From Myxococcota bacterium (GTDB taxonomy: Bacteria; Myxococcota_A; Polyangia; Nannocystales; Nannocystaceae), in NCBI GenBank assembly GCA_039028615.1, contig JBCCHT010000028.1:1-64000 (forward strand): DNA of 64,000 nucleotides. The letters are read 5' to 3'. Under the pieces are notes generated by a model. That model was not told the origin of the DNA. It saw only the letters and a program-made list of their open reading frames with translations, and searched no databases. Position 1 is the first letter of the stretch. Every line of letters starts with the position of its first letter. Below are positions 13,945 to 44,436 of this stretch, in pieces. The translations under genes were made by a program, and so were the position numbers.

Positions 13945-14117
13945 CGCGCCTTCGAAAGCCCACGAAATCGGGCGACGTCCCGATCGAGGCATGGCGTAAA
14001 ATGCCTATGGGTTGGCTCGAAGTGAGAGTGTTCGCTTCGAGTCGCGACGCAATACTCCGAACGAGGGATGGCATGGCCGCGACGATGCGCGGCGCCGTTC
14101 CTCGCGAGGAGTGATCG

Positions 14118-15707
14118 ATGGACGACGACCAACGAATGAAGTGCTACGAGCCGGGGGGCAAGCCGCTCGAGCCCTTCTGCTACAACCCACAGCTCAACGC
14201 CGGGCCCAAAGGCCAATACACCGCCGAGTACCAGGGGCCCGACTACGCCAGCGGCGGTGTCCAACTCGGGGACGTATCCGTGTTCATGGGGCTCGAGCCC
14301 ACCACGCAGGCCGCGGAGGTCTTCGCCGAAAACGGTTCGGATAGCTTCAGCCAGTGCTGGGCCGACGATGCGCAGAAACACCTCATGGGCAAGCTGCTCG
14401 GGTGCAATGCAGACCAATGGAGCCACGAGACGCGCCCGGTCGACGGAGCGCAGGAAACGGTCTGCACCTCCCGCTTCAGCGCGCCCGTGGGCGACCTCCC
14501 CCCTCAATACGATGGCGACCTGAAGAACTGGGAGTACGGGCCCACCGAAGAGCCGCTCTTCCTCGACTTCAGCGAGGGCATCAACGGCGAGGTCGGCATG
14601 ATCACCGTGGGCAACAACAAGGGCGGCGGCATCCCCAACGCCAACCGCAACAACTGGGACGACAACGTCGAGGTCGTGTGGGATGAAAGCCTCGGCAAGT
14701 ACGTCTGCCAGCTCGACACCTATATGGTCGTCAAGGGCAAGGGCAAGGACGCGGTGTGGGCCATCAAGAACACGGGCGGCCTGATCACCACCAAGATGTA
14801 CGCTTCGGGCTCGTACGAGGTCCGAGCCAAGATCCCGAAGGCATCCGGCCTCGTATGGGCGATGTGGACGTTCTGGACGGCCGAGACCGACAGCGACCGC
14901 ACTCCCGATCCCACCAAGCACGACCCGTGTGCCGATTCGCGAGACTTCGTGGAGAGCAGCAGCGGCTCGCCTTTGTGGGTGGACCGCACCACCGATCCCG
15001 GGACGCTGCTGCCGCAGCGCGGCAAGGAGATGCCCAATCACGAGATCGACATCGAAATTCCGTCCAATTCCCCGCAGACCGTCGACCCGAGCCATCACCC
15101 GGGCAAGGCGGACAAGTACGACACGCTCAACATGAACTGCTATCGCTGGACCAACGGCAATGGCACGGGCACCTACAACAACCTGTTTGCCCACAACAAA
15201 GCGGGCGACTTTCTGGGCGACGGCGAATACCACACGTACCGCTTCGACTGGCATACGGGCGATCCCGAAAAAGGCATCGCGCCTCGAGTCGACTTCTACT
15301 TCGACGATCAGTACATCGGCACGAACGACGCCATGGTCCCGTACATGGCGGGCCGGCTGTGGGTGATGCTCTGGGCCCCGAACAACGGCCAAGCGGGCGG
15401 CAACGGCTCGTGGAACGGAGTCGTCGACCAGAGCTTCCATGGCACCGAGCTCCCCCCGGAAGGCACCATCGCTCGGTATGCGCGCGTGCTCGTCGAGCAT
15501 GTCCGCGTCACCCCCTACGGCGAGGCGAACGATCGCTATGCGTCCTCGCCCTACGATCAGCCCGCCATGGGTACGGGCCAAGGCTGCACGGACTGCGGCA
15601 AGAAGAACCCGGCGGGCACGACCTCGATCCTGCCGTACTCCACGAAGGACCCGCACGCGCCCGGTGGGATCGAGTGGATCAAAAAGGGGGCTCCCACGAA
15701 ATCGTGA
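14118..15707 (+). CDS. glycoside hydrolase family 16 protein
   Basis: SD GAGGAG; GSYEVRAK, GLVWAMW, catalytic EIDIE, YHTYRFDW, VDFYFDD. Confidence 0.8.
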   Translation: MDDDQRMKCYEPGGKPLEPFCYNPQLNAGPKGQYTAEYQGPDYASGGVQLGDVSVFMGLEPTTQAAEVFAENGSDSFSQCWADDAQKHLMGKLLGCNADQWSHETRPVDGAQETVCTSRFSAPVGDLPPQYDGDLKNWEYGPTEEPLFLDFSEGINGEVGMITVGNNKGGGIPNANRNNWDDNVEVVWDESLGKYVCQLDTYMVVKGKGKDAVWAIKNTGGLITTKMYASGSYEVRAKIPKASGLVWAMWTFWTAETDSDRTPDPTKHDPCADSRDFVESSSGSPLWVDRTTDPGTLLPQRGKEMPNHEIDIEIPSNSPQTVDPSHHPGKADKYDTLNMNCYRWTNGNGTGTYNNLFAHNKAGDFLGDGEYHTYRFDWHTGDPEKGIAPRVDFYFDDQYIGTNDAMVPYMAGRLWVMLWAPNNGQAGGNGSWNGVVDQSFHGTELPPEGTIARYARVLVEHVRVTPYGEANDRYASSPYDQPAMGTGQGCTDCGKKNPAGTTSILPYSTKDPHAPGGIEWIKKGAPTKS

Positions 15708-15715
15708 GAGCCCCC
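15686..15715. terminator. GC-rich hairpin between convergent GH16 and rtcB
   Basis: GGGGGCTC...GAGCCCCC stem preceded by AAAAA (U-tract on minus strand): plausible intrinsic terminator for the rtcB transcript. Confidence 0.6.
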
Positions 15716-15722
15716 GACGGGC

Positions 15723-16853
15723 TCACCCGCCCTTGAACACCAGCAGCGGAGTGAGCCGGCGAATCGCTCGGGTCAGGTCACGCTGGGCCCGCATGACCTG
15801 CCCGATGTCCTTGTAGGCCCCGGGCGCTTCCTCGAGCAGCCTCCGGCTCAACCGGCGGTCGAACCAGATGCCCTCCATGGCGTCGGAAAGCTGAGCCCCA
15901 GTGATCCGACGCCGAGCCACCGACCGCGACATCGCGCGGCCGGCCCCATGCGAGCTCGTGCACAGGGCCGCCGTGCACCCGCGCCCCTCCACATGAAAGC
16001 TCGCCGTGCCCATCGAGCCCGGGATGATGCCGAGCTCGCCCGCTCGGGCCGAGATGGCGCCCTTGCGATGGACCCACAGCGCCTGCCCCTCATGCGTCTC
16101 ACGACGGACGAAGTTGTGATGGCAGGCCACCGTGCTGTCCTCCCGAGCCCGAACGCCGAACCGAGCGGCGAGCACCTCCGCCACCCGAGCCACCATGCGC
16201 TCCCGGCTGCGCGCAGCGTAGTCGAGCGCCCACTCGAGATCGGACAGATACGCTCGACCCGCATCGGAGTCGGCCTCGAGCACCGTGATGCCCGCTCGGT
16301 TGCGCCGCCCCTTGCGTTCGTGGGCCTGACGAATGGCCTGGCCCATCCCGCGCGAGCCGCTGTGCACCATCAGCCACAGCCCGCCCGCGTCGTCGGCCTG
16401 GAGCTCCACGAAGTGGTTCCCCCGGCCCAAGGTGCCGAACTGCAGCGCTGCCTCGCGCTCCTTGGTGGCTTCGAGGGCCGCGTCGCTCAACGTACGCTCG
16501 GCGAGCGAGGCCGGCAGCTGCACCCCCGCGGAACGACGATGCCGCATGATGGGGACCGTCTCGTACAGCCCCTCGAGCAGCGCCGCCGCGTGGGCTGCAT
16601 CGGCGAGCAGCTCGGCCGGAGCCTCGAAGGCCACCGCCGCCATGCCGCACCCGATGTCCCCACCGACGGCGGCCGGACACAGCGTGCGCCGAGTCGCGAG
16701 CGCGACCCCGACACAGACCTCCTTCGACAGGTGCACATCGGGCATGACCGCGACGCGGTGCACGTCCTCGTCGCGAGCCAAGCGATCGATCGCCTGCTTC
16801 ACGTCCGCAGACAGCGGCTCCGCCACCCACTGGTGGACCTCAGTACGAATCAT
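15723..16853 (-). CDS. rtcB: RtcB family RNA ligase
   Basis: MPDVH, VGGDIGCGM, GTLGRGNHFVE, HSGSRG, HHN, HRKGA, PGSMG, SSHGAGR, EEAPGAYK all present; SD GAGGAGG. Confidence 0.95.
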   Translation of the reverse strand: MIRTEVHQWVAEPLSADVKQAIDRLARDEDVHRVAVMPDVHLSKEVCVGVALATRRTLCPAAVGGDIGCGMAAVAFEAPAELLADAAHAAALLEGLYETVPIMRHRRSAGVQLPASLAERTLSDAALEATKEREAALQFGTLGRGNHFVELQADDAGGLWLMVHSGSRGMGQAIRQAHERKGRRNRAGITVLEADSDAGRAYLSDLEWALDYAARSRERMVARVAEVLAARFGVRAREDSTVACHHNFVRRETHEGQALWVHRKGAISARAGELGIIPGSMGTASFHVEGRGCTAALCTSSHGAGRAMSRSVARRRITGAQLSDAMEGIWFDRRLSRRLLEEAPGAYKDIGQVMRAQRDLTRAIRRLTPLLVFKGG

Positions 16854-17271
16854 CGTCGTCCTCCTCGGGGTGCAGCAACACCGCAGCCGGCGTCACGATG
16901 AAGTGCAGATGTGGCGTCCGCTTGCGGTGCAGCGCTCCCGCGATCTCCGATCGCAGCAGCCCTCGCGCCGCATCCAGGTGCGTGCGCACCTGCGCCGCTC
17001 GCTCGGCCTCGTCGACGATGACCTGCACGAGCAACGAGCGCCCGCCCGGCTCGGGCCTCACCGCGTTCACCCACAGCCCCTGCAAGACAGGGTCGTGGAG
17101 CTCTCCGCCCAGGGCGATATCCAGCCGTCGCTGAACCTGACGGCACATTTGTAGAGTTTTGATGTCGGTGTCGGTCTGTCCTCCAAAGAAAAGGGTCTGA
17201 AGGTCCGGGGCATGCTCGCTCGGGACCTGGTGACGGGAGCCTCGCTTCCGTCGGTTGCGTTTCGAAGTCAT
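16840..17271 (-). CDS. RbfA-like protein (ribosome-binding factor A paralogue)
   Basis: DPVLQGLWVNAV..LLVQV..LDAARGLLRSEIAGALHRKRTPHLHF matches the RbfA KH-fold signature (L..A.G.lR..l...l..R.tP.L.F); basic N-tail; overlaps rtcB start by 14 nt. Confidence 0.8.
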   Translation of the reverse strand: MTSKRNRRKRGSRHQVPSEHAPDLQTLFFGGQTDTDIKTLQMCRQVQRRLDIALGGELHDPVLQGLWVNAVRPEPGGRSLLVQVIVDEAERAAQVRTHLDAARGLLRSEIAGALHRKRTPHLHFIVTPAAVLLHPEEDDDDSY

Positions 17272-17278
17272 TGTCGAT

Positions 17279-17448
17279 GGACTCTCACTGCGGCCACGCC
17301 AAACCGGCGCGACCCACTGGGGTAACGAAAGAGGGTGAGAGCCTCGGGTCCACGGGCACCACGCACGCAAATGCAGGCGTAGCTGCGCTACACCGACACT
17401 CCACGCGTAGTGAGGCCTAGGGGCGGCCTAGCGTCGTACGGGCGTGGA
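17279..17448 (-). promoter_or_regulatory. putative translational attenuator (segments 1:2, 2:3, 3:4)
   Basis: seg1 UCCACGC (17448-17442) pairs seg2 GCGUGGA; seg2 GUGGAGUGUCGG (17404-17393) pairs seg3 CCGAGGCUCUCAC (17347-17335); seg3 GGCUCUCAC pairs seg4 GUGAGAGUC (RBS region of RbfA-like gene). Confidence 0.6.
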
Positions 17449-17490
17449 AACGAGGCTCGACTTCGATCCGCTGGTGACAAGGGGCTGCAT
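17428..17490 (-). CDS. putative 20-aa leader peptide MQPLVTSGSKSSLVSTPVRR
   Basis: GGAAAGGAGG SD 6 nt before ATG at 17490; TAG at 17430-17428; below ORF-track size cutoff. Confidence 0.65.
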   Translation of the reverse strand: MQPLVTSGSKSSLVSTPVRR

Positions 17491-17546
17491 GGTCGTCCTC
17501 CTTTCCTCGTCGCTCGCCGATGCACTCGGCCGACTACGACCGACGA

Positions 17547-17575
17547 AAACTAGGGGGCAGCCTCCACCCTGTCAA
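17547..17575 (-). promoter_or_regulatory. sigma70-type promoter TTGACA-N17-TAGTTT
   Basis: Perfect -35, 17-nt spacer, TA---T -10; about 55 nt upstream of leader ATG. Confidence 0.7.
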
Positions 17576-17832
17576 GGGAGTTTGCGCCGGGCTGGTCGTG
17601 TCCAAGACATTGCGGTTCACGACGAACCGAAGCACCGACCCCGCGTCGCGTCGGTCGCATCCAAGGCCGCGAGCGATGCATCGTCGGAGACGCGGATGCC
17701 GAGTCACCCCGCGCGGCGAATCAACCGCCGCGATCGAGGGCCTGCGCGGCCGCGAACGAACCAAAATCGCGCACATTCCGCAGCGCCCGAGCGTTCCTTC
17801 CAAGGTCACACTCGGCCCTCCGCACCAAAGCC

Positions 17833-17860
17833 TTGACTGCCTCGCAGACATGCTTAGTGT
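17833..17860 (+). promoter_or_regulatory. possible promoter for htpG, TTGACT-N16-TAGTGT
   Basis: Consensus-like hexamers about 80 nt upstream of htpG start. Confidence 0.35.
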
Positions 17861-17942
17861 GCGGCCGCATCCTACTGGCGACGGTTGCGCGAGGACCCCG
17901 TCCCCCGCCGTCGCCAAGGCCCAGCCCACCGAGGAATCTCCC

Positions 17943-19889
17943 GTGACCGACTCTGCTGCCCAGACCCACGAGTTCAAGGCCGAGGTCGCCGCCGTTTTAC
18001 GCCTGGTGACCAACTCGCTGTACACCAACCGCGAGATCTTCCTGCGCGAGCTCATCTCCAACGCCTCCGATGCGCTCGACAAGGCCCGCTTCACCGCCCT
18101 GGTGGACAAGGACCTCCGCGATCAAGAGATCGAGCCGCACATCCAGCTGACGCTGGACAAGGCGCAGGGCGTGCTGGTCATCGAAGACACCGGCATCGGC
18201 ATGACGGCCGAAGAGGCGCAGAACAACCTCGGCACCATCGCCCACTCGGGCACGCTGCGCTTCCTCGAGCAAGCCGCGGCCGACAAGGCCGAGGGCAAGA
18301 AGGCCGACCTGAACCTCATCGGTCAGTTCGGGGTCGGCTTCTACTCGGCGTTCATGGTCGCCACGCGGATCGACGTGCACAGCCTCTCCGCCCGCCCCGG
18401 GCAGGAGCCCGTGCACTGGAGCAGCGACGGCAACGGCTTCTCCGTGTCGCCCTCCGCCCGCAAGTTCCGGGGCACTCGCATCGAGCTGACGCTCAACGAC
18501 GAGGGCAAGGAGTTCCTCGAGCGCTTCCGCGTCGAGCACATCGTCAAGCGGTACAGCAACTTCGTCCTGTACCCCATCAAGCTCAAGGTCATCGACGACA
18601 AGGGCGAGATCGACGGCGAGAACACGCAGGCCAACGCCGCCAACGCGTTCTGGACTCGCAGCCCCAAGGACGTCACCGACGACGACTACAAGGAGTTTTA
18701 CACCCACCTGATGGGTGGTTTCGTGATGCCCGGCGACGAGCCGCTGGCCCGCGTGCACCTGTCGCTCGACGCTCCCATCCAGTTCAAGTCGGTGCTCTTC
18801 GTGCCGGGGCGGCGTCCGCCCGATCTGTTCGCCGAGGACAGCCGCGCGCTGCAGCTGTACGCGCGTCGCGTGCTGGTGATGGAGAGCTGCGACAAGCTGC
18901 TGCCCACCTACCTGCGCTTCATCCGGGGCGTCGTGGACTCCGAGGACCTGCCGCTCAACGTCTCCCGCGAGATGCTGCAGGAGCACCAGTCGGTGGCCGC
19001 CATCCGCCGTCAGCTGGTCCGCAAGGTGCTCAAGACCCTGGCCGACCTCGCCAAGAAGGACGCCGACAAGTACGCCCTGTTGTGGCAGGAGTTCGGCGTG
19101 TTCCTCAAAGAGGGCCTGCACACCGACAACGGCCACCGCGAGCAGCTCACCGGGCTCCTCCGCTTCGAGAGCACCACCAGCGAGGGCAAGGGCATCTCGC
19201 TCGACGAGTACGTCGAGGGCATGCCCGAGGGCCAAGAGGCCATCTACTACATCACGGGTGACTCCACCGAGGCGCTGGCCCGCAGCCCGCACCTCGAGGC
19301 CTGTCGCTCGCGCGGCTACGCCGTGCTCATGATGACCGACGCGGTCGACGAGTGGGTGGTCCAGGACCTCAGCGAGCACAAGGGCAAGCCCCTGCGCAGC
19401 GTGACCCAGGGCGACCTGGGCCTCGATGGCAGCGAGAAGGACGACGAGGCCAAAGCCGAGGGCGAGGACGGCGAGTCCAAGGACGAGTCGGCCAAGGCCA
19501 CCGCCATCGATCCGCTGCTGCGCGCCGCCAAAGAGGTGCTCGGTGAGCGCATCAAGGAGGTTCGCGCCTCCTCGCGCCTCACCGACAGCGCCGCGTGCCT
19601 GGTCGACGCCGAGGGCGGTCTGAGCCGCAACATGGAGCGGATCCTTCGCATGTCGAACCGCGACGTGCCCACCCGCCCGCGCATCCTCGAGCTCAACCCC
19701 ACCCACCCCTTCGTGGTGGCCGCCAACGCGCTCGCGGGCGAGGGTGAGGCCTCGGACAAGCTCGGCTCGTGGGTCGAGCTGCTGCACGACCAGGCCAACC
19801 TCGCCGAGGGCACCGTGGCCGACCCGGCCGGCATGGTCCAACGCATCCAGGCGCTGCTCGATCAGGCGGCTGGGGTCGACGCCAAGTGA
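17943..19889 (+). CDS. htpG: molecular chaperone HtpG (Hsp90)
   Basis: SLYTNREIFLRELISNASDALDK, IEDTGIGM, GTIAHSGT, IGQFGVGFYSAF, DSEDLPLNVSRE; GTG start after GAGGA. Confidence 0.97.
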   Translation: MTDSAAQTHEFKAEVAAVLRLVTNSLYTNREIFLRELISNASDALDKARFTALVDKDLRDQEIEPHIQLTLDKAQGVLVIEDTGIGMTAEEAQNNLGTIAHSGTLRFLEQAAADKAEGKKADLNLIGQFGVGFYSAFMVATRIDVHSLSARPGQEPVHWSSDGNGFSVSPSARKFRGTRIELTLNDEGKEFLERFRVEHIVKRYSNFVLYPIKLKVIDDKGEIDGENTQANAANAFWTRSPKDVTDDDYKEFYTHLMGGFVMPGDEPLARVHLSLDAPIQFKSVLFVPGRRPPDLFAEDSRALQLYARRVLVMESCDKLLPTYLRFIRGVVDSEDLPLNVSREMLQEHQSVAAIRRQLVRKVLKTLADLAKKDADKYALLWQEFGVFLKEGLHTDNGHREQLTGLLRFESTTSEGKGISLDEYVEGMPEGQEAIYYITGDSTEALARSPHLEACRSRGYAVLMMTDAVDEWVVQDLSEHKGKPLRSVTQGDLGLDGSEKDDEAKAEGEDGESKDESAKATAIDPLLRAAKEVLGERIKEVRASSRLTDSAACLVDAEGGLSRNMERILRMSNRDVPTRPRILELNPTHPFVVAANALAGEGEASDKLGSWVELLHDQANLAEGTVADPAGMVQRIQALLDQAAGVDAK

Positions 19890-20914
19890 GCGGTACCACC
19901 GGGCTGCTCCTGCTGAACCTGGGGACCCCCGACGCACCGCGTGCGCCGGAGGTCCGCCGGTACTTGCGACAGTTCCTCTCGGACCCGCGGGTGATCGACA
20001 TCAACCCGGTGGCCCGGTGGCTCCTGCTCAACCTCATCATCTTGCCGATTCGGCCGGCCAAGTCGGCCGCCGCCTACCAAAAGGTGTGGAGCGACGAGGG
20101 CTCGCCGCTGCTCGTGCACGGCAAGGCCCTGCGAGACGCCGTGGCCGAGCGCCTCGACGACACGCCCGTCGTCCTGGCGATGCGCTACGGCAACCCTTCC
20201 ATCGCGCACGGCCTCGACCAGCTGCGCGAGCAGGGCTGCGACGAGCTCGTGGTGCTGCCGCTGTTTCCCCAGTACGCGTCGAGTTCCACCGGCTCCGCCA
20301 TCGAGGCGGTCTATCGCGACGTCGCCGAGCGCTGGAACACGCCCTTCATCCGGGTGGTGCCGCCCTTTTACGAGGACGTGGGCTTCATTGATGCCTTCGC
20401 CCAGATCGGCCGGCCCGTGCTCGATGAGCTCGACCCTCAGCACGTGCTGATGTCATTCCACGGCCTGCCCGAGCGCCACATGATCAAGAGCGACGACTCG
20501 GGTCGGCACTGCTTGGCCAGCGACGGCTGCTGCGACGCTGTCGGGCCCGACAATCGCAACTGCTACCGGGCGCAGTGCTTCGCCACCGCCCGGGCGCTCG
20601 CCGCCCAGCTCGAGCTCAGCGACGCCGACTACAGCGTCACGTTCCAGTCTCGGCTTGGCCGCACGCCGTGGATCAAGCCCTATACCGACGAAGTCTTGAT
20701 CGAGCTGGCCAACAAGGGCGTGGAGCGCTTGGCCGTGTACTGCCCCGCGTTCGTGGCCGACTGCCTCGAGACCCTCGAAGAGATCGGCATGCGAGCCGAC
20801 GAGGACTTCCGCGCGGCGGGGGGTAAGCGCCTCGTGCTCGTGCCCTCGCTCAACTCGCATCCGGCCTGGGCCGACGCGGTCGTCCAGCTCAGCGGCCTCG
20901 GCACGTCCGCCTGA
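19886..20914 (+). CDS. hemH: ferrochelatase
   Basis: LLNLGTPDAP, FLSDPRV, AMRYGNP, PLFPQY, SFHGLP, FQSRLG..WIKP, FVADCLETLEE; GTGA overlap with htpG. Confidence 0.95.
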   Translation: MSGTTGLLLLNLGTPDAPRAPEVRRYLRQFLSDPRVIDINPVARWLLLNLIILPIRPAKSAAAYQKVWSDEGSPLLVHGKALRDAVAERLDDTPVVLAMRYGNPSIAHGLDQLREQGCDELVVLPLFPQYASSSTGSAIEAVYRDVAERWNTPFIRVVPPFYEDVGFIDAFAQIGRPVLDELDPQHVLMSFHGLPERHMIKSDDSGRHCLASDGCCDAVGPDNRNCYRAQCFATARALAAQLELSDADYSVTFQSRLGRTPWIKPYTDEVLIELANKGVERLAVYCPAFVADCLETLEEIGMRADEDFRAAGGKRLVLVPSLNSHPAWADAVVQLSGLGTSA

Positions 20915-20935
20915 GGCCTTCGTCGATGCCGTGGC

Positions 20936-21343
20936 CTAGGCGGCGCCCGCTTTGGCGAGGCGCTCCAGGGCCCAGCGAATGCCCTCTTCTTCCTCGCGGA
21001 ACACTTTGTAGGGGACCGGCAATCCCTGCATCTTGAGGATCGCCCGCAGCACCCCGCGCATGACGGGTGAGGGCAACACGAAGGCCGCGCCTGCGCACAG
21101 GTCCCGAATGCGCTGCTCGTTGGTCGCGAGCCAGCTCGCCTGCATCCGCGCATGACGGGCCTTGGTCATCGGCGTATGCGGCTTCGTGATCATGATCGAG
21201 GCGTAGGGCAGGCCACGATTGAGTACCGCGTCGAAGTCCGCCAGATACGCCTTGAAGTCCTCGTCCGTCGGCTGCCCGACGACCCGACCAATCACGATCG
21301 GCCAGCGATCGCGATCGACGTAGATGCCTGGTCCTCCGCTCAC
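20936..21343 (-). CDS. small STAS/SEC14-like myxobacterial protein
   Basis: WPIV..TDEDF..., GAAFVLPSPVMRGVLRAI..PVPYKVF..W pattern. Confidence 0.6.
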   Translation of the reverse strand: MSGGPGIYVDRDRWPIVIGRVVGQPTDEDFKAYLADFDAVLNRGLPYASIMITKPHTPMTKARHARMQASWLATNEQRIRDLCAGAAFVLPSPVMRGVLRAILKMQGLPVPYKVFREEEEGIRWALERLAKAGAA

Positions 21344-41837: not shown

Positions 41838-42908
41838 TCACATGTTCTTGCGGTCCGTCACCCAGCCGGGATCCGTGCACAGGTCGCACCCGTCTCCTAT
41901 GAACAGGGCTTCGGCCTGCACGTCCCCCATCAGCTCCATGCGCAGCCACGCCGTGATCGGCCCCCGGTAGCCTCCCGCATCGCCGACCGGCTCGAAGTGG
42001 CTGGCGCCGAGCAGCTTGCCGTAGAAGGTCGGCACGTTCGACGGGCCGTAGACCAGCGACTCGACCAGGCCCGGCGAGACGATGGTGTCGCTGCCGCCCG
42101 ACATCACGAACATCGTGCCGCTCAGGCCACTCACGTTGCCCGGCGCGGGCTGGATGGGCACCACGGTGGACACTCGCGGGTCGCCCCCCGCGTTGATGCT
42201 CCCGCCCCCGCCCTGCGAGTGGCCGAGCGACCCGATCGAGTCGACATCGAGCGCCCCGTAGAATTCAGAAGCCCCGAGCGCGTTCTGGTCGATCAACCAG
42301 CTCATGCCCTCGATCATCTCCATACCCGAACCGGTCTGCGTGCTGTTGGACGCAATGACCACGAAGCCGTGGCTCGCGAGGTGCTCGAGCAACCCCGCGT
42401 AGTACTGCGGGATGGCGAAGGTCCCGTTGCCCCACGTCAGGATGGGGTGCTCGAACCCGCTGCTGGCCACGTTGGCGGGATAGTGCAGCGCAAAGGCGCC
42501 CCCCGGCCCTTCGTTGTATCGCGTGGTGACCGAAAAGGGCCCCGGCTGGTCGAAGCTGGCCACCGCGGGGAAGCCCGGGTCCGGGTCGGCCGGCGGCTCG
42601 TCATCGCCTCCCGAGTCCGCGCCGTCTCCCGGACCTGGGTCCTCGCCGCCCGTGCTGTCGCCCATCCCGTCGTCATCATCATCGTCGCCACCGAAGGTCT
42701 CGTCCGACGGCGCGTCTGCGGCCCCGGCGTCGTTGTCGTCCTCGTCCTCGTCCTCGTCCCCCGTCGGCCCCACCGAGCCCGCGGAGGCCGGACCGACCCC
42801 GGGCGTTCCCCAGGTGGTTCCCATGTCCCCTCCGGCGGCACACCCCGAGGCCAGCAACACCCCGAGAGGCCACGCCACCTGCACCTTTAAGCACTTCCGC
42901 GTCGTCAT
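41838..42908 (-). CDS. alpha/beta-hydrolase lipoprotein, cutinase/polyester-hydrolase-like
   Basis: Lipobox ASGC; WGNGT, HLASHGFVV, GHSQGG, GGSDTIV, ASHFEP. Confidence 0.85.
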   Translation of the reverse strand: MTTRKCLKVQVAWPLGVLLASGCAAGGDMGTTWGTPGVGPASAGSVGPTGDEDEDEDDNDAGAADAPSDETFGGDDDDDDGMGDSTGGEDPGPGDGADSGGDDEPPADPDPGFPAVASFDQPGPFSVTTRYNEGPGGAFALHYPANVASSGFEHPILTWGNGTFAIPQYYAGLLEHLASHGFVVIASNSTQTGSGMEMIEGMSWLIDQNALGASEFYGALDVDSIGSLGHSQGGGGSINAGGDPRVSTVVPIQPAPGNVSGLSGTMFVMSGGSDTIVSPGLVESLVYGPSNVPTFYGKLLGASHFEPVGDAGGYRGPITAWLRMELMGDVQAEALFIGDGCDLCTDPGWVTDRKNM

Positions 42909-43098
42909 GCATGCTCACAGTTACGGCCCGCGCCGCTTCGATCACGGCGTCGTCGAGGTGTTTCGGTCTGCTCGCTGACCCCGGATACACGCGGGGCTCG
43001 TTTTGCAGGGAACGGCTCGGATCACGCATCGCCGCAAACGCATCGGGGCCGATGACGAACGTCATCGACCCCGCATGGCCGCCATCCCCGGCGCGTCG

Positions 43099-44436
43099 CT
43101 AGATCGGGATGTACAGCAGCTGCGTGCCCGCCACGAGATCGGGCGTGTTGCAGTTGAACTGGAACCCGGTCGCAGAGTCCAGCTGGATCCCCGAGGTCGC
43201 CTCGGCCCCGTTGTCGGCGCTGTTGCCCGCGTTGATGGTGTCCTCGTAGCAGACGTCGATGTTGCCGGACGCCTCGTGCAGCACCACCTGGAAGCGCATC
43301 AGGTCGGACGCATCCCCCGAGAAGTTGGCGGTATCGAACTGCACCACGAAGCGCTGGTCGCCCGGCATGCCGAGCAGCTCGTAGCGCACCGCACCCGCGC
43401 CCACCGTGGGGTTCAGGTCGTCCCAGAACACGTAGAGCATGTTGGTCGAGGGCGAGGACGCGGTGGGCAGACAGCTGTTGGTCAGGCCCATCTCCGCGGG
43501 GCTGCCGAAGTGGATGGCCCCGTTGGACTGCAGCGTGATGTCCGTGTAGTCGACGCCGTAGAACGGGAACGTAAAGCCCATCGGCACGGTCGCGGCGTCG
43601 TCATCGGTGAGCCCCGCGTTGGTGCCCGTGGCACTGATGTCGTCGCACAGTGTCATGGGCAGGCTGAGCGCAAAGCCGTTGTAGCCGACGTCGCTGCCGA
43701 AGGGCACGCCCGGGATGTCGCACTCGGAGAAGTCGTAGGTGCAGCTCGGCGTGCAGCTCAGCGTGCCCCCGGTCAGGCCCAGCGAAGCGCAGTCGTTGCC
43801 GGCCAGGTCGAGGCCGTCGCAGCTCTCTGGATCTTGGGTGATGCCGTCGCCACACAGCGCGCACGCGGTGGTGTCGTAGAAGCAGTCGTCACCGCAGGTC
43901 ACCGTGCCGCCCTCGAAGCCGAGGGTGAAGCAATCGACGTCCTCGGGCACTCCTCCTTCGCACTCCTCCGCCAGATCGAGGGTCCCGTTGCCGCAGATGA
44001 AGCAGCCGAGGAGGTTGTAGTCCTCGCAGGTCAGCAGGCACCCGAGCTGTCCGCCTTCGTGGCCCAGCGACTGGCAGGTCTCGCCGTTGAGCTGCGCCAG
44101 GTCGCAGACCTCGTTGCCTTCGATGACGTTGTTGCCACAGACGGAGACCTCACCGGTCGACCCGGCGCCCGTGCTGCCTCCCGTGCTTCCGGTCGCCCCG
44201 GTCGAGCTGCCCCCGTCGGCCGCGGCCGTCGACTCGCCCGCGGAGCCCTCGTCGACCCCCGACTCGTCGGTCTGCGCGGTGGCGGGATCGGTGGTGTTGC
44301 CGTCGTCGCTGGTCAGCGGGCCGATGCCAGTGGTGGCGGTCGTCAGCCCGGTCGTGGATGGAGAAGAGTCGTCGCCGCATGCACCGAGAAACGACAACGC
44401 CAAACACACGGTAGGACAGACGATCCGGTAACCCAT
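43099..44436 (-). CDS. Cys-rich repeat lipoprotein with NIDO-like C-terminal domain
   Basis: Lipobox LGAC; CGN..EG.E.CD repeats x3; DDD..GFTFPFYG..SNG..FWDDL..FQVVL. Confidence 0.75.
   Translation of the reverse strand: MGYRIVCPTVCLALSFLGACGDDSSPSTTGLTTATTGIGPLTSDDGNTTDPATAQTDESGVDEGSAGESTAAADGGSSTGATGSTGGSTGAGSTGEVSVCGNNVIEGNEVCDLAQLNGETCQSLGHEGGQLGCLLTCEDYNLLGCFICGNGTLDLAEECEGGVPEDVDCFTLGFEGGTVTCGDDCFYDTTACALCGDGITQDPESCDGLDLAGNDCASLGLTGGTLSCTPSCTYDFSECDIPGVPFGSDVGYNGFALSLPMTLCDDISATGTNAGLTDDDAATVPMGFTFPFYGVDYTDITLQSNGAIHFGSPAEMGLTNSCLPTASSPSTNMLYVFWDDLNPTVGAGAVRYELLGMPGDQRFVVQFDTANFSGDASDLMRFQVVLHEASGNIDVCYEDTINAGNSADNGAEATSGIQLDSATGFQFNCNTPDLVAGTQLLYIPI

Follow-up and report, generated by a model that had tools for sequence, protein, structure and literature searches.

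Organization of the locus

The window, i.e. the whole stretch of 64,000 nucleotides that was analysed, carries on its minus strand a two-gene operon in which a gene for a paralogue of RbfA is followed by rtcB, and the first gene is preceded by a leader of 276 nt containing a short upstream open reading frame (uORF) with its own Shine-Dalgarno (SD) sequence. The features of this region, where S1 to S4 denote the pairing segments of the leader, are as follows.

17547-17575, minus: putative sigma-70-like promoter (-35 box 17575-17570, 17-nt spacer, -10 box 17552-17547)
17516-17530, minus: small 5' hairpin before the uORF SD, seen in the minimum-energy fold, with similar 5' hairpins in the folded homologues
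17491-17506, minus: S1, the uORF's own strong SD (17506-17497) and spacer; 5' strand of the OFF helix S1:S2
17428-17490, minus: uORF, with ATG at 17490 after a 6-nt spacer, 20 codons, stop ending at 17428
17443-17461, minus: S2, uORF codons 10-16/17, the switching strand, pairing with S1 or S3; covers most of segment 1 of the sequence-only reading (see below)
17357-17412, minus: variable insert hairpin, not conserved and folding on itself; contains segment 2 of the sequence-only reading (17406-17393)
17335-17354, minus: S3, whose 5' part pairs with S2 (ON) and whose 3' part pairs with S4 (OFF); includes segment 3 of the sequence-only reading
17292-17314, minus: conserved inner hairpin inside S3:S4 (minimum-energy fold, RNAalifold)
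17271-17288, minus: weak ribosome-binding site of the rbfA-like gene, with S4 at 17288-17280, 10 nt before the ATG
17262-17269, minus: first rbfA-like codons, forming in this copy an 8-bp helix with uORF codons 9-11 (17466-17459)
16840-17271, minus: gene for the RbfA paralogue (143 aa; its N-terminal tail is basic and of low confidence)
15723-16853, minus: rtcB, for an RtcB RNA ligase (376 aa; Pfam RtcB, E 4e-83)
15686-15715, minus: intrinsic terminator closing the two-gene operon (13-bp stem, T tail)

The putative promoter was missed by a consensus scan because its -10 box matches at 3 of 6 positions. The uORF and its SD are present just as they had been described in an earlier reading made from the sequence alone (the sequence-only reading), and both of the extra hairpins listed in that reading also appear in our folds. 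The leader as a whole folds with a z of -4.52, and 0 of 200 shuffles were as stable. In the alignment, S3 is a near-repeat of S1 that runs into segment 3 of the sequence-only reading; its pairing regions for S2 and for S4 share 4 nt in most homologues and 5 nt in this copy, and a pyrimidine tract is located 3' of S3. The S4 motif lies 6-12 nt before the start codon in close homologues, and no 16S rRNA 3' end for scoring the SD strength of S4 was found in the assembly. A search with 4227 Rfam models over positions 14000-21000 gave no match to the leader up to E 5. The possibility of intrinsic termination within the leader was considered and rejected, as no intrinsic terminator was found on the minus strand from the uORF to 17271. 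On the plus strand, a 529-aa ORF (14118-15707) with a weak match to glycosyl hydrolase family 16 converges on rtcB and ends within the terminator hairpin, while htpG (Hsp90; 17946-19889) and the ferrochelatase gene (19844-20914) are divergent from the leader promoter. The neighbouring genes vary between homologous loci.

Proteins encoded by the operon

The paralogue matches the Pfam RBFA model exactly at its cut-off (34.7 bits), and with a TIGR00082 score of 22.6 bits against a cut-off of 51.15 it fails the test for the housekeeping orthologue; the canonical rbfA of this genome is a separate copy on contig C48 (101.6 Pfam bits). In a PDB search with the structural model of the paralogue, every entry at ranks 1-10 was either RbfA or a complex of small-subunit assembly (best E 1.1e-5), from which the protein is predicted to have an RbfA fold; binding of RbfA to the small subunit is stated in the titles of the matched PDB entries. 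The rtcB gene overlaps the 3' end of the rbfA-like gene by 14 nt, and its product contains 9 of 9 motif patterns that we take to be those of the RtcB active site. This RtcB scores 148.2 bits with TIGR03073 (cut-off 271.8) and 191.6 with NF007153 (cut-off 407), and hence, as judged by these model cut-offs, it is apparently not of the RtcB2 class, its partner being RbfA-like and not prfH. There are five RtcB matches in the source genome. The other four, on contigs C16, C8, C25 and C4, are very divergent from the paralogue-linked copy, and in a tree the 16 paralogue-linked RtcBs cluster apart from these four (support 95/93), which form long branches. A search of the genome contigs with the single protein gave one weak locus. 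A Myxococcota label is attached to one homologous protein. Of the nearest Atlas clusters, those of known affiliation are mostly Planctomycetota.

Conservation of the leader and of the uORF

Loci encoding the paralogue were gathered from 61 relatives, 401 genomes of the phylum, 73 genomes of the family and a metagenome scan, and 66 of them remained once repeats of the same locus, seven near-duplicates and a single locus with insufficient upstream DNA had been removed. A uORF was scored where a frame of 8-26 codons was preceded by a strict or loose SD, with 4872 long ORFs of the source genome as background. A uORF with a strict SD was found in 46 of the 66 paralogue loci compared with 158 of the 4872 background ORFs (3.2%), one with a loose SD in 61 of 66 compared with 752 of 4872, and a uORF with a promoter-like motif upstream in 32 of 66 compared with 3 of 4872; since the loci are related to one another and each background start is guessed from the first ATG, these counts are enrichments and not independent trials. 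The uORF thus recurs in homologous operons, on whose possession of it the sequence-only reading had made its proposal depend. Of the canonical rbfA loci, 2 of 12 gave a strict match, and both of these look like pieces overlapping the upstream gene. An adjacent downstream rtcB is present in 42 of the 62 paralogue loci with enough downstream DNA. In the remaining 20 (L007, L037, L043, L046, L050, L052, L066, L075, L095, L099, L107 and others) it is absent, and many of these keep the uORF, which indicates that it is the RbfA paralogue, and not rtcB, that the leader accompanies. A covariance model of S1 and the uORF gave 14 matches in the 73 family genomes, viz. 13 strong ones and one marginal (E 0.0099); 12 of the 13 strong matches, most of them training sequences, are located directly upstream of the paralogue. 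The leader is real and conserved. In the thirteenth strong match (L112, G019:C18:150398-153481) the leader looks intact, S4 and the RbfA paralogue have been lost through a deletion behind it, and an internal fragment of rtcB is left; judging from the sequence, this copy of the operon has decayed. No regulon of leaders of this kind was found in the source genome, where nhmmer and the covariance model each detected only this copy.

The uORF has 18 codons in the 13 close homologues and 20 in the source genome. Over codons 2-17 in the 14 close leaders pN is 0.181 and pS 0.186 (pN/pS of about 1), compared with 0.315 and 0.579 for the rbfA-like gene, and distant leaders encode unrelated peptides, so that the uORF appears to be conserved as RNA and not as a peptide. 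All 14 of these leaders share the same Ser-Ser-Leu codons 11-13, whereas eight different amino acids occur at codon 6. Codons 3-4 are near-invariant as well (CCC in 14 of 14, CTT in 12 of 14), for which the sole explanation that we can offer is a small inner hairpin. These observations bear upon the suggestion in the sequence-only reading that Ser/Thr richness and A/T-ending codons serve as the sensor. The codons that it named are indeed rare within their amino acids (CTT 2.7%, GGA 7.2%, GTT 3.2%, GTA 2.1%, CGA 12.9%). However, synonymous change is suppressed (pS 0.186 vs 0.579), codons 11-13 are invariant and the GTA codon 18 is found in only 1 of 14 leaders, and the constrained bases of the uORF would be better explained as anti-SD pairing. 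Sensing that is peptide-specific or based on Ser/Thr is likewise disfavoured by the pN/pS of about 1. The idea that the uORF is read through or fused into the rbfA-like frame was also rejected as a conserved mechanism, since the frames agree in the source genome but in only 7 of the 14 close leaders. Among individual loci, the leader peptides of L062 and L087 end in four consecutive cysteines, and in L049 the paralogue lies directly behind another gene, the product of which has a C-terminus that presumably resembles HflX.

Three overlapping helices in the leader

In the alignment, S2 is complementary to S1 or, alternatively, over about 15 bp to S3, and RNAalifold returns both S1:S2 and S3:S4 unprompted. 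For the 12 close leaders, 88.9% of cells are paired over the 15 pairs of S2:S3 and 91.7% over the 8 pairs of S3:S4, compared with 31-55% for slid partners used as a control; these counts retain L007, L057 and L058, which are imperfectly aligned around S3 or S4. Covariation in these 12 leaders was not above that in shuffles, the observed score being reached in 161 of 500 shuffles for the OFF helix and in 87 of 500 for the ON helix. When S1:S2 was considered in 20 more diverse leaders, both sides changed at 8 of 17 pairs (14 cells), with 1 of 500 shuffles as high and the score reached in 4 of 500, although this level of covariation lies within what relatedness alone can sometimes give. In alignment-free comparisons, S1:S2 beats shuffles in 13 of 14 close and 4 of 21 distant leaders, and its median in the close leaders is -27.6 kcal/mol compared with -18.3 for 531 SD-led genes. 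The corresponding alignment-free counts for S2:S3 (6 of 14 close and 4 of 21 distant leaders) are weakened because the automated picking of S3 took the wrong strand in some loci (e.g. L003 and L057). In 22 divergent leaders, segments pair better with their own partners than with swapped ones (permutation p 0.0008 and 0.0005 for two helices). The helices are predicted to be mutually exclusive, and one of them would mask the rbfA-like gene's ribosome-binding site. The latter pairing had been recognized in the sequence-only reading, in which segment 3 (17343-17335) pairs with segment 4 (17288-17280) over 9 bp including one G-U, and it is conserved in the homologues.

Effect of ribosome position on folding

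An assumed ribosome footprint (-15 or -18 to +16) was walked along the uORF of each leader, the related leaders not being independent of each other. In ribosome-free folds of 15 leaders, the probability of S1:S2 exceeds 0.5 in 13 and that of S3:S4 in 11. With a ribosome at codon 1, S2:S3 exceeds 0.5 in 9 of the 15 leaders, whereas with a ribosome at codons 10-16 it does so in none of them and S3:S4 does so in 12-14. In the 14 close leaders, opening the start region of the rbfA-like gene costs on average 9.8 kcal/mol when the leader is free, 7.5 with a ribosome at codons 1-3 and 10.4 with one at codons 8-17; the early cost is below the late cost in 13 of these leaders, and a ribosome located late in the uORF lowers the cost by more than 1 kcal/mol in only 1 of 14. 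The early-minus-late effect changes from -3.45 to -0.61 upon shuffling of codons 10-17, and it shrinks in 15 of 15 leaders. The predicted exposure of S4 is modest, rising in the mean from 0.14 to 0.29 and exceeding 0.5 at codon 1 in only 2 of 15 leaders, and for L006 and L007 no switch is seen in the predicted folds.

Among distant leaders, the early cost is below the late cost in 9 of 13 (p 0.08), and among held-out leaders, four of which are near-identical kin, in 11 of 16 (p 0.065), with late positions also opening the site in 6 of the 16. By our reading of the folds, at least 8 of the 16 held-out leaders have an SD-to-uORF hairpin when ribosome-free. In a related group of loci (L097 and L101-L105) the leader is shorter and the uORF 9 codons long; folds of four members (L097, L101, L103 and L105) show the uORF SD region in direct pairing with the start region of the rbfA-like gene, in the manner of toiL, and these are four of the six late-opening leaders.

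Folding of the copy in the source genome

In its predicted folds, the copy in the source genome is atypical among the leaders. At full-length equilibrium the probability of S1:S2 is 0.00 in this copy, as compared with above 0.5 in 13 of the 15 leaders, and its S1:S2 duplex is no stronger than that in 27.7% of the 531 SD-led control genes. Without a ribosome, S2:S3 wins (-130.2 vs -116.7 kcal/mol; probability 1.00 at both 28 and 37 C), its advantage being about 13 kcal/mol in longer constructs and about 6 without the first rbfA-like codons. The helix between codons 9-11 and the first rbfA-like codons, which adds to the advantage of S2:S3 in the longer constructs, is private to this copy, no equivalent having stood out in the homologue folds that were viewed; its probability is 1.00 when the leader is free or has a ribosome at codon 1, and 0.00 with a ribosome at codon 5. 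The opening cost in this copy is unchanged at codons 1-3 (9.8 kcal/mol throughout). S2:S3 has a probability of 1.00 when free and with a ribosome at codons 1-6, and S3:S4 reaches 0.69-0.85 at codons 15-18. The unpaired fraction of S4 is about one half when the leader is free or has a ribosome at codons 1-5, and 0.03-0.37 when the ribosome is at codons 10-19. Since the ON helix is favoured here without a ribosome, the OFF state of this copy would need a kinetic trap due to the order of folding, or ribosome traffic. In line with the former, in transcript prefixes S1:S2 stands at 0.97-1.00 until S3 is complete, and when S1:S2 is held, S3:S4 is formed at 0.56-0.84. However, as the OFF state rests on folding order or on traffic, a leader that responds to the absence of traffic, which is considered below, stays alive as a rival.

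Proposed mechanism and its alternatives

Based upon these results, we consider the leader to be a uORF-dependent translational attenuator, which would be opened by ribosomes that initiate but then halt at the start codon or the first codons; the probability of this reading is, in our estimate, about 0.58. During transcription, S2 (codons 10-17) would fold back on S1, the uORF's own SD, leaving S3 free to pair with S4 and to hide the rbfA-like gene's ribosome-binding site (the OFF state). A ribosome translating through the uORF would cover S2 or would let it re-pair with S1, and the OFF state would persist. However, if a ribosome is held at codons 1 to about 3-4, it would cover S1 and leave S2 free, and the latter would then pair with S3 over about 15 bp, displace S4 and permit translation of the rbfA-like gene (the ON state), with translation of rtcB following by overlap coupling. 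What the computation shows is the conservation, the three overlapping helices and the direction in which ribosome position acts; that the uORF is translated, that the helices form in this order and that the output is translational rather than at the level of Rho is inferred, as are the natural inducer and the part played by the two proteins. As the signal in this mechanism is the position of the ribosome and not the sequence of the peptide, any block of the first elongation cycles should induce, and the inducers to be expected are drugs that arrest initiation, a cut decoding centre, or a loss of the tRNAs for codons 2-4. Induction by early stalling has precedents in the material cited from PMC9226507, PMC13041342 and PMC12121999.

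The natural inducer may be sought in the functions of the two proteins. RtcB is reported, in the part of the source drawn upon here, to re-ligate the 16S rRNA 3' end (PMC5416887), and together with the binding of RbfA to the small subunit this makes damage to the 30S subunit a plausible trigger; antibiotics that arrest initiation fit equally well. We put forward as a tentative extension, which is less probable than not by a good measure, that the leader senses initiating ribosomes in which the 30S decoding region or the 16S 3' end has been cut, and that the operon is a PrfH-independent module for 30S repair, in which the RbfA fold would present the broken 16S rRNA to the ligase.

One should also consider that the leader could be a sensor for the absence of traffic, similar to whiB7, with S2:S3 as the relaxed state, which would be kept melted, and S3:S4 thereby allowed to form, as long as codons 8-18 are steadily translated, so that any fall in uORF translation, including a lack of initiation, would turn the operon ON without a stalled ribosome. 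Of all the readings this one best fits the source-genome copy, where S2:S3 is at 1.00 when free (L058 behaves similarly), and a loss-of-start mutation in whiB7 is described, in the portion of the report cited, as raising expression (10.1101/2023.06.02.543512). However, 13 of 15 leaders adopt S1:S2 when ribosome-free, accompanied by S3:S4 in 11, the helix S1:S2, which is the best supported of the three, would be left with no role, and even in the source-genome folds it is S1:S2 that forms first during transcription; we therefore regard this reading as rather unlikely. It is improbable, too, that the same RNA switch acts mainly on Rho-dependent termination or pausing, or on mRNA stability, with masking of the ribosome-binding site being secondary. 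Repression of topAI translation brings about Rho termination (PMC12121999) and a uORF stall in S. meliloti controls a presumed Rho attenuation (PMC12218461), as far as the cited parts of these papers go, and a pyrimidine tract follows S3 in our leader. Against these stand the conserved helix, which closes exactly over the ribosome-binding site, the highly structured nature of the leader and, between the uORF and the gene, the lack of an intrinsic terminator.

Control by a factor other than the uORF ribosome, e.g. the RbfA paralogue itself or a small RNA, or a leader that only damps expression constitutively, appears decidedly improbable to us. RbfA folds bind RNA, the uORF peptide is not under amino-acid selection, and translation of the uORF is read from its sequence, all of which would suit such control; however, leaders of otherwise unrelated sequence retain a strong SD, a start codon and an open frame of 8-26 codons, with the switching strand at a fixed distance behind the uORF start. 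There is finally the model of the sequence-only reading, in which a late stall covers codons 15-17 (segment 1) and frees segment 2 for pairing with segment 3, with Ser/Thr or rare codons as the sensors. Its uORF, its 3:4 helix and the link it drew between the ribosome and this operon are retained in our mechanism, whereas its assignment of segments and its trigger are not. The complementarities can be drawn on paper, viz. 7 bp between 17448-17442 (codons 15-17) and 17406-17400 for 1:2, and 11 bp with a bulge and a mismatch for 2:3. However, the 1:2 helix is neither conserved nor favoured, being appreciable in this copy only with a ribosome at codons 9-10 (0.80 and 0.13), and the three scored pairs of the 2:3 helix are at 0.00 ribosome-free and at all 20 ribosome positions (21 conditions), this fold being 16 kcal/mol above the minimum. 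Segment 2, to which the switching role had been given, lies in the variable insert, and its motif is present at that place in 0 of 11 aligned homologues, most of which are gapped there. In folds with segment 1 blocked, 3:4 stays at 0.59 and 2:3 at 0.00, and the site is mostly closed. Late positions ease opening in only 1 of 14 close leaders, and in the source-genome copy they leave S4 less unpaired than it is when free or with a ribosome at codons 1-5. The conserved partner of segment 1 is instead a second copy of the segment 2 motif at 17354-17349, which adjoins segment 3, and hence a ribosome on codons 15-17 should keep the operon OFF and not ON. A late stall as the signal is, in view of these results, scarcely credible.

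Comparison with known systems

As judged by the features described in the cited parts of PMC12057347, PMC13041342 and PMC3516279, the closest known system is the PA5471.1 leader of armZ (PA5471, RtcB-like)-prfH (PA5470) in Pseudomonas aeruginosa. There too a short leader peptide precedes an RtcB-like gene, the hairpin of segments 3 and 4 is the OFF state, stalling at early codons induces (an amber codon at codon 3; dependence upon Gln3/Phe4), as is predicted for our leader, and trouble with ribosomes induces an operon that services ribosomes, as is proposed here. However, the PA5471.1 leader, in the same sources, exerts its effect by a transcription terminator, is 13 codons long and governs a prfH-linked RtcB, whereas the present leader, in which no terminator was found, is predicted to cover a ribosome-binding site with 3:4, and its operon joins an RbfA paralogue to an RtcB that falls short of the cut-offs of both TIGR03073 and NF007153. 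The source genome also has a separate rtcB-prfH-like pair on contig C25 (L029; rtcB 42726-43418, prfH-like gene 43472-44041), for which the best NCBIfam matches are NF007153, TIGR03073 and TIGR03072, all below cut-off. An SD-led uORF of 22 codons (L029:880-948), with a near-repeat inside, ends about 55 nt before the likely start of this pair, and from its sequence it is possibly a second leader of the PA5471.1 type. The RtcB2-PrfH ribosome repair pair (PMC9304027, PMC9223846) is, in the parts of these papers used, similarly a two-gene operon of RtcB and a ribosome-binding partner; here the partner is an RbfA-fold protein and not a release factor, and RbfA occurs 0 times in the main texts of these two papers.

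In the leaders of vmlR of Bacillus subtilis (PMC9226507), cplR and vga(A) (as cited in PMC12121999), a ribosome stalled at initiation is described as blocking an anti-anti helix, and an alternative long-range helix then disrupts the hairpin that sequesters the SD. A helix activating upon a start-stall is predicted in 9 of 15 of our leaders, and in 13 of 14 by opening cost; the equilibrium folding of the source-genome copy does not separate a start-stall from an absent ribosome. The vmlR leader differs, by the same partial account, in that its 3-codon uORF lies inside the first hairpin with a single-stranded SD, and in having an intrinsic terminator and an ABC-F target, whereas in the present leader the uORF SD serves as segment 1, the switching strand is formed by later codons of the same uORF, and neither a terminator nor an ABC-F gene is present. 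The toiL uORF of topAI-yjhQP in E. coli is, according to the part of PMC12121999 cited, a Gram-negative case of translational attenuation induced by drugs that trap ribosomes at start codons, but because the pairing partner of this uORF is the downstream ribosome-binding site itself, induction results from a stall at any position. For the core family of the present leaders, an indirect relay of three helices with an early window is predicted instead.

In the ermC and cat attenuators, 1:2 and 3:4 alternate with 2:3, 3:4 hides the ribosome-binding site and the ribosome stalls at an internal codon defined by the drug and the peptide. The present leader resembles these in its SD-led uORF and in the predicted mutually exclusive helices, one of which masks the ribosome-binding site; however, its peptide is not conserved (pN/pS of about 1), a ribosome at codons 8-17 keeps the site closed in the folds and the genes are those for an RbfA paralogue and RtcB. 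Mention is made of ermB and ermC in the cited part of PMC12121999. The leader is predicted to work in a similar way to these systems, but as it fails the defining features of each, viz. a terminator, a conserved stall peptide, the target gene, or RtcB2/prfH, it is not classed as a member of any of them. Among the matches listed by a search of the main texts of freely accessible papers, there was no description of this leader or operon, and the single mention of rbfA in the part of PMC8421152 that was matched is unrelated.

Significance of the leader

To our knowledge, most bacterial RtcB ligases are without an assigned substrate or trigger. A leader that is opened by early stalling would make this question testable, as the insult that induces it should point to what the pair of RbfA paralogue and RtcB services. 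It would also extend early-stall sensing from resistance genes and armZ-prfH to a second operon encoding RtcB, and it would do so by a compact design, in which the uORF supplies both the first segment (its SD) and the switch (its own codons). The Ser-Ser-Leu codons further suggest that a conserved motif in a leader peptide can be an RNA pairing signal read in frame. If the tentative repair role set out above is true, then damaged ribosomes would switch on their own repair kit by sitting on an SD sequence that doubles as the first segment of the attenuator.
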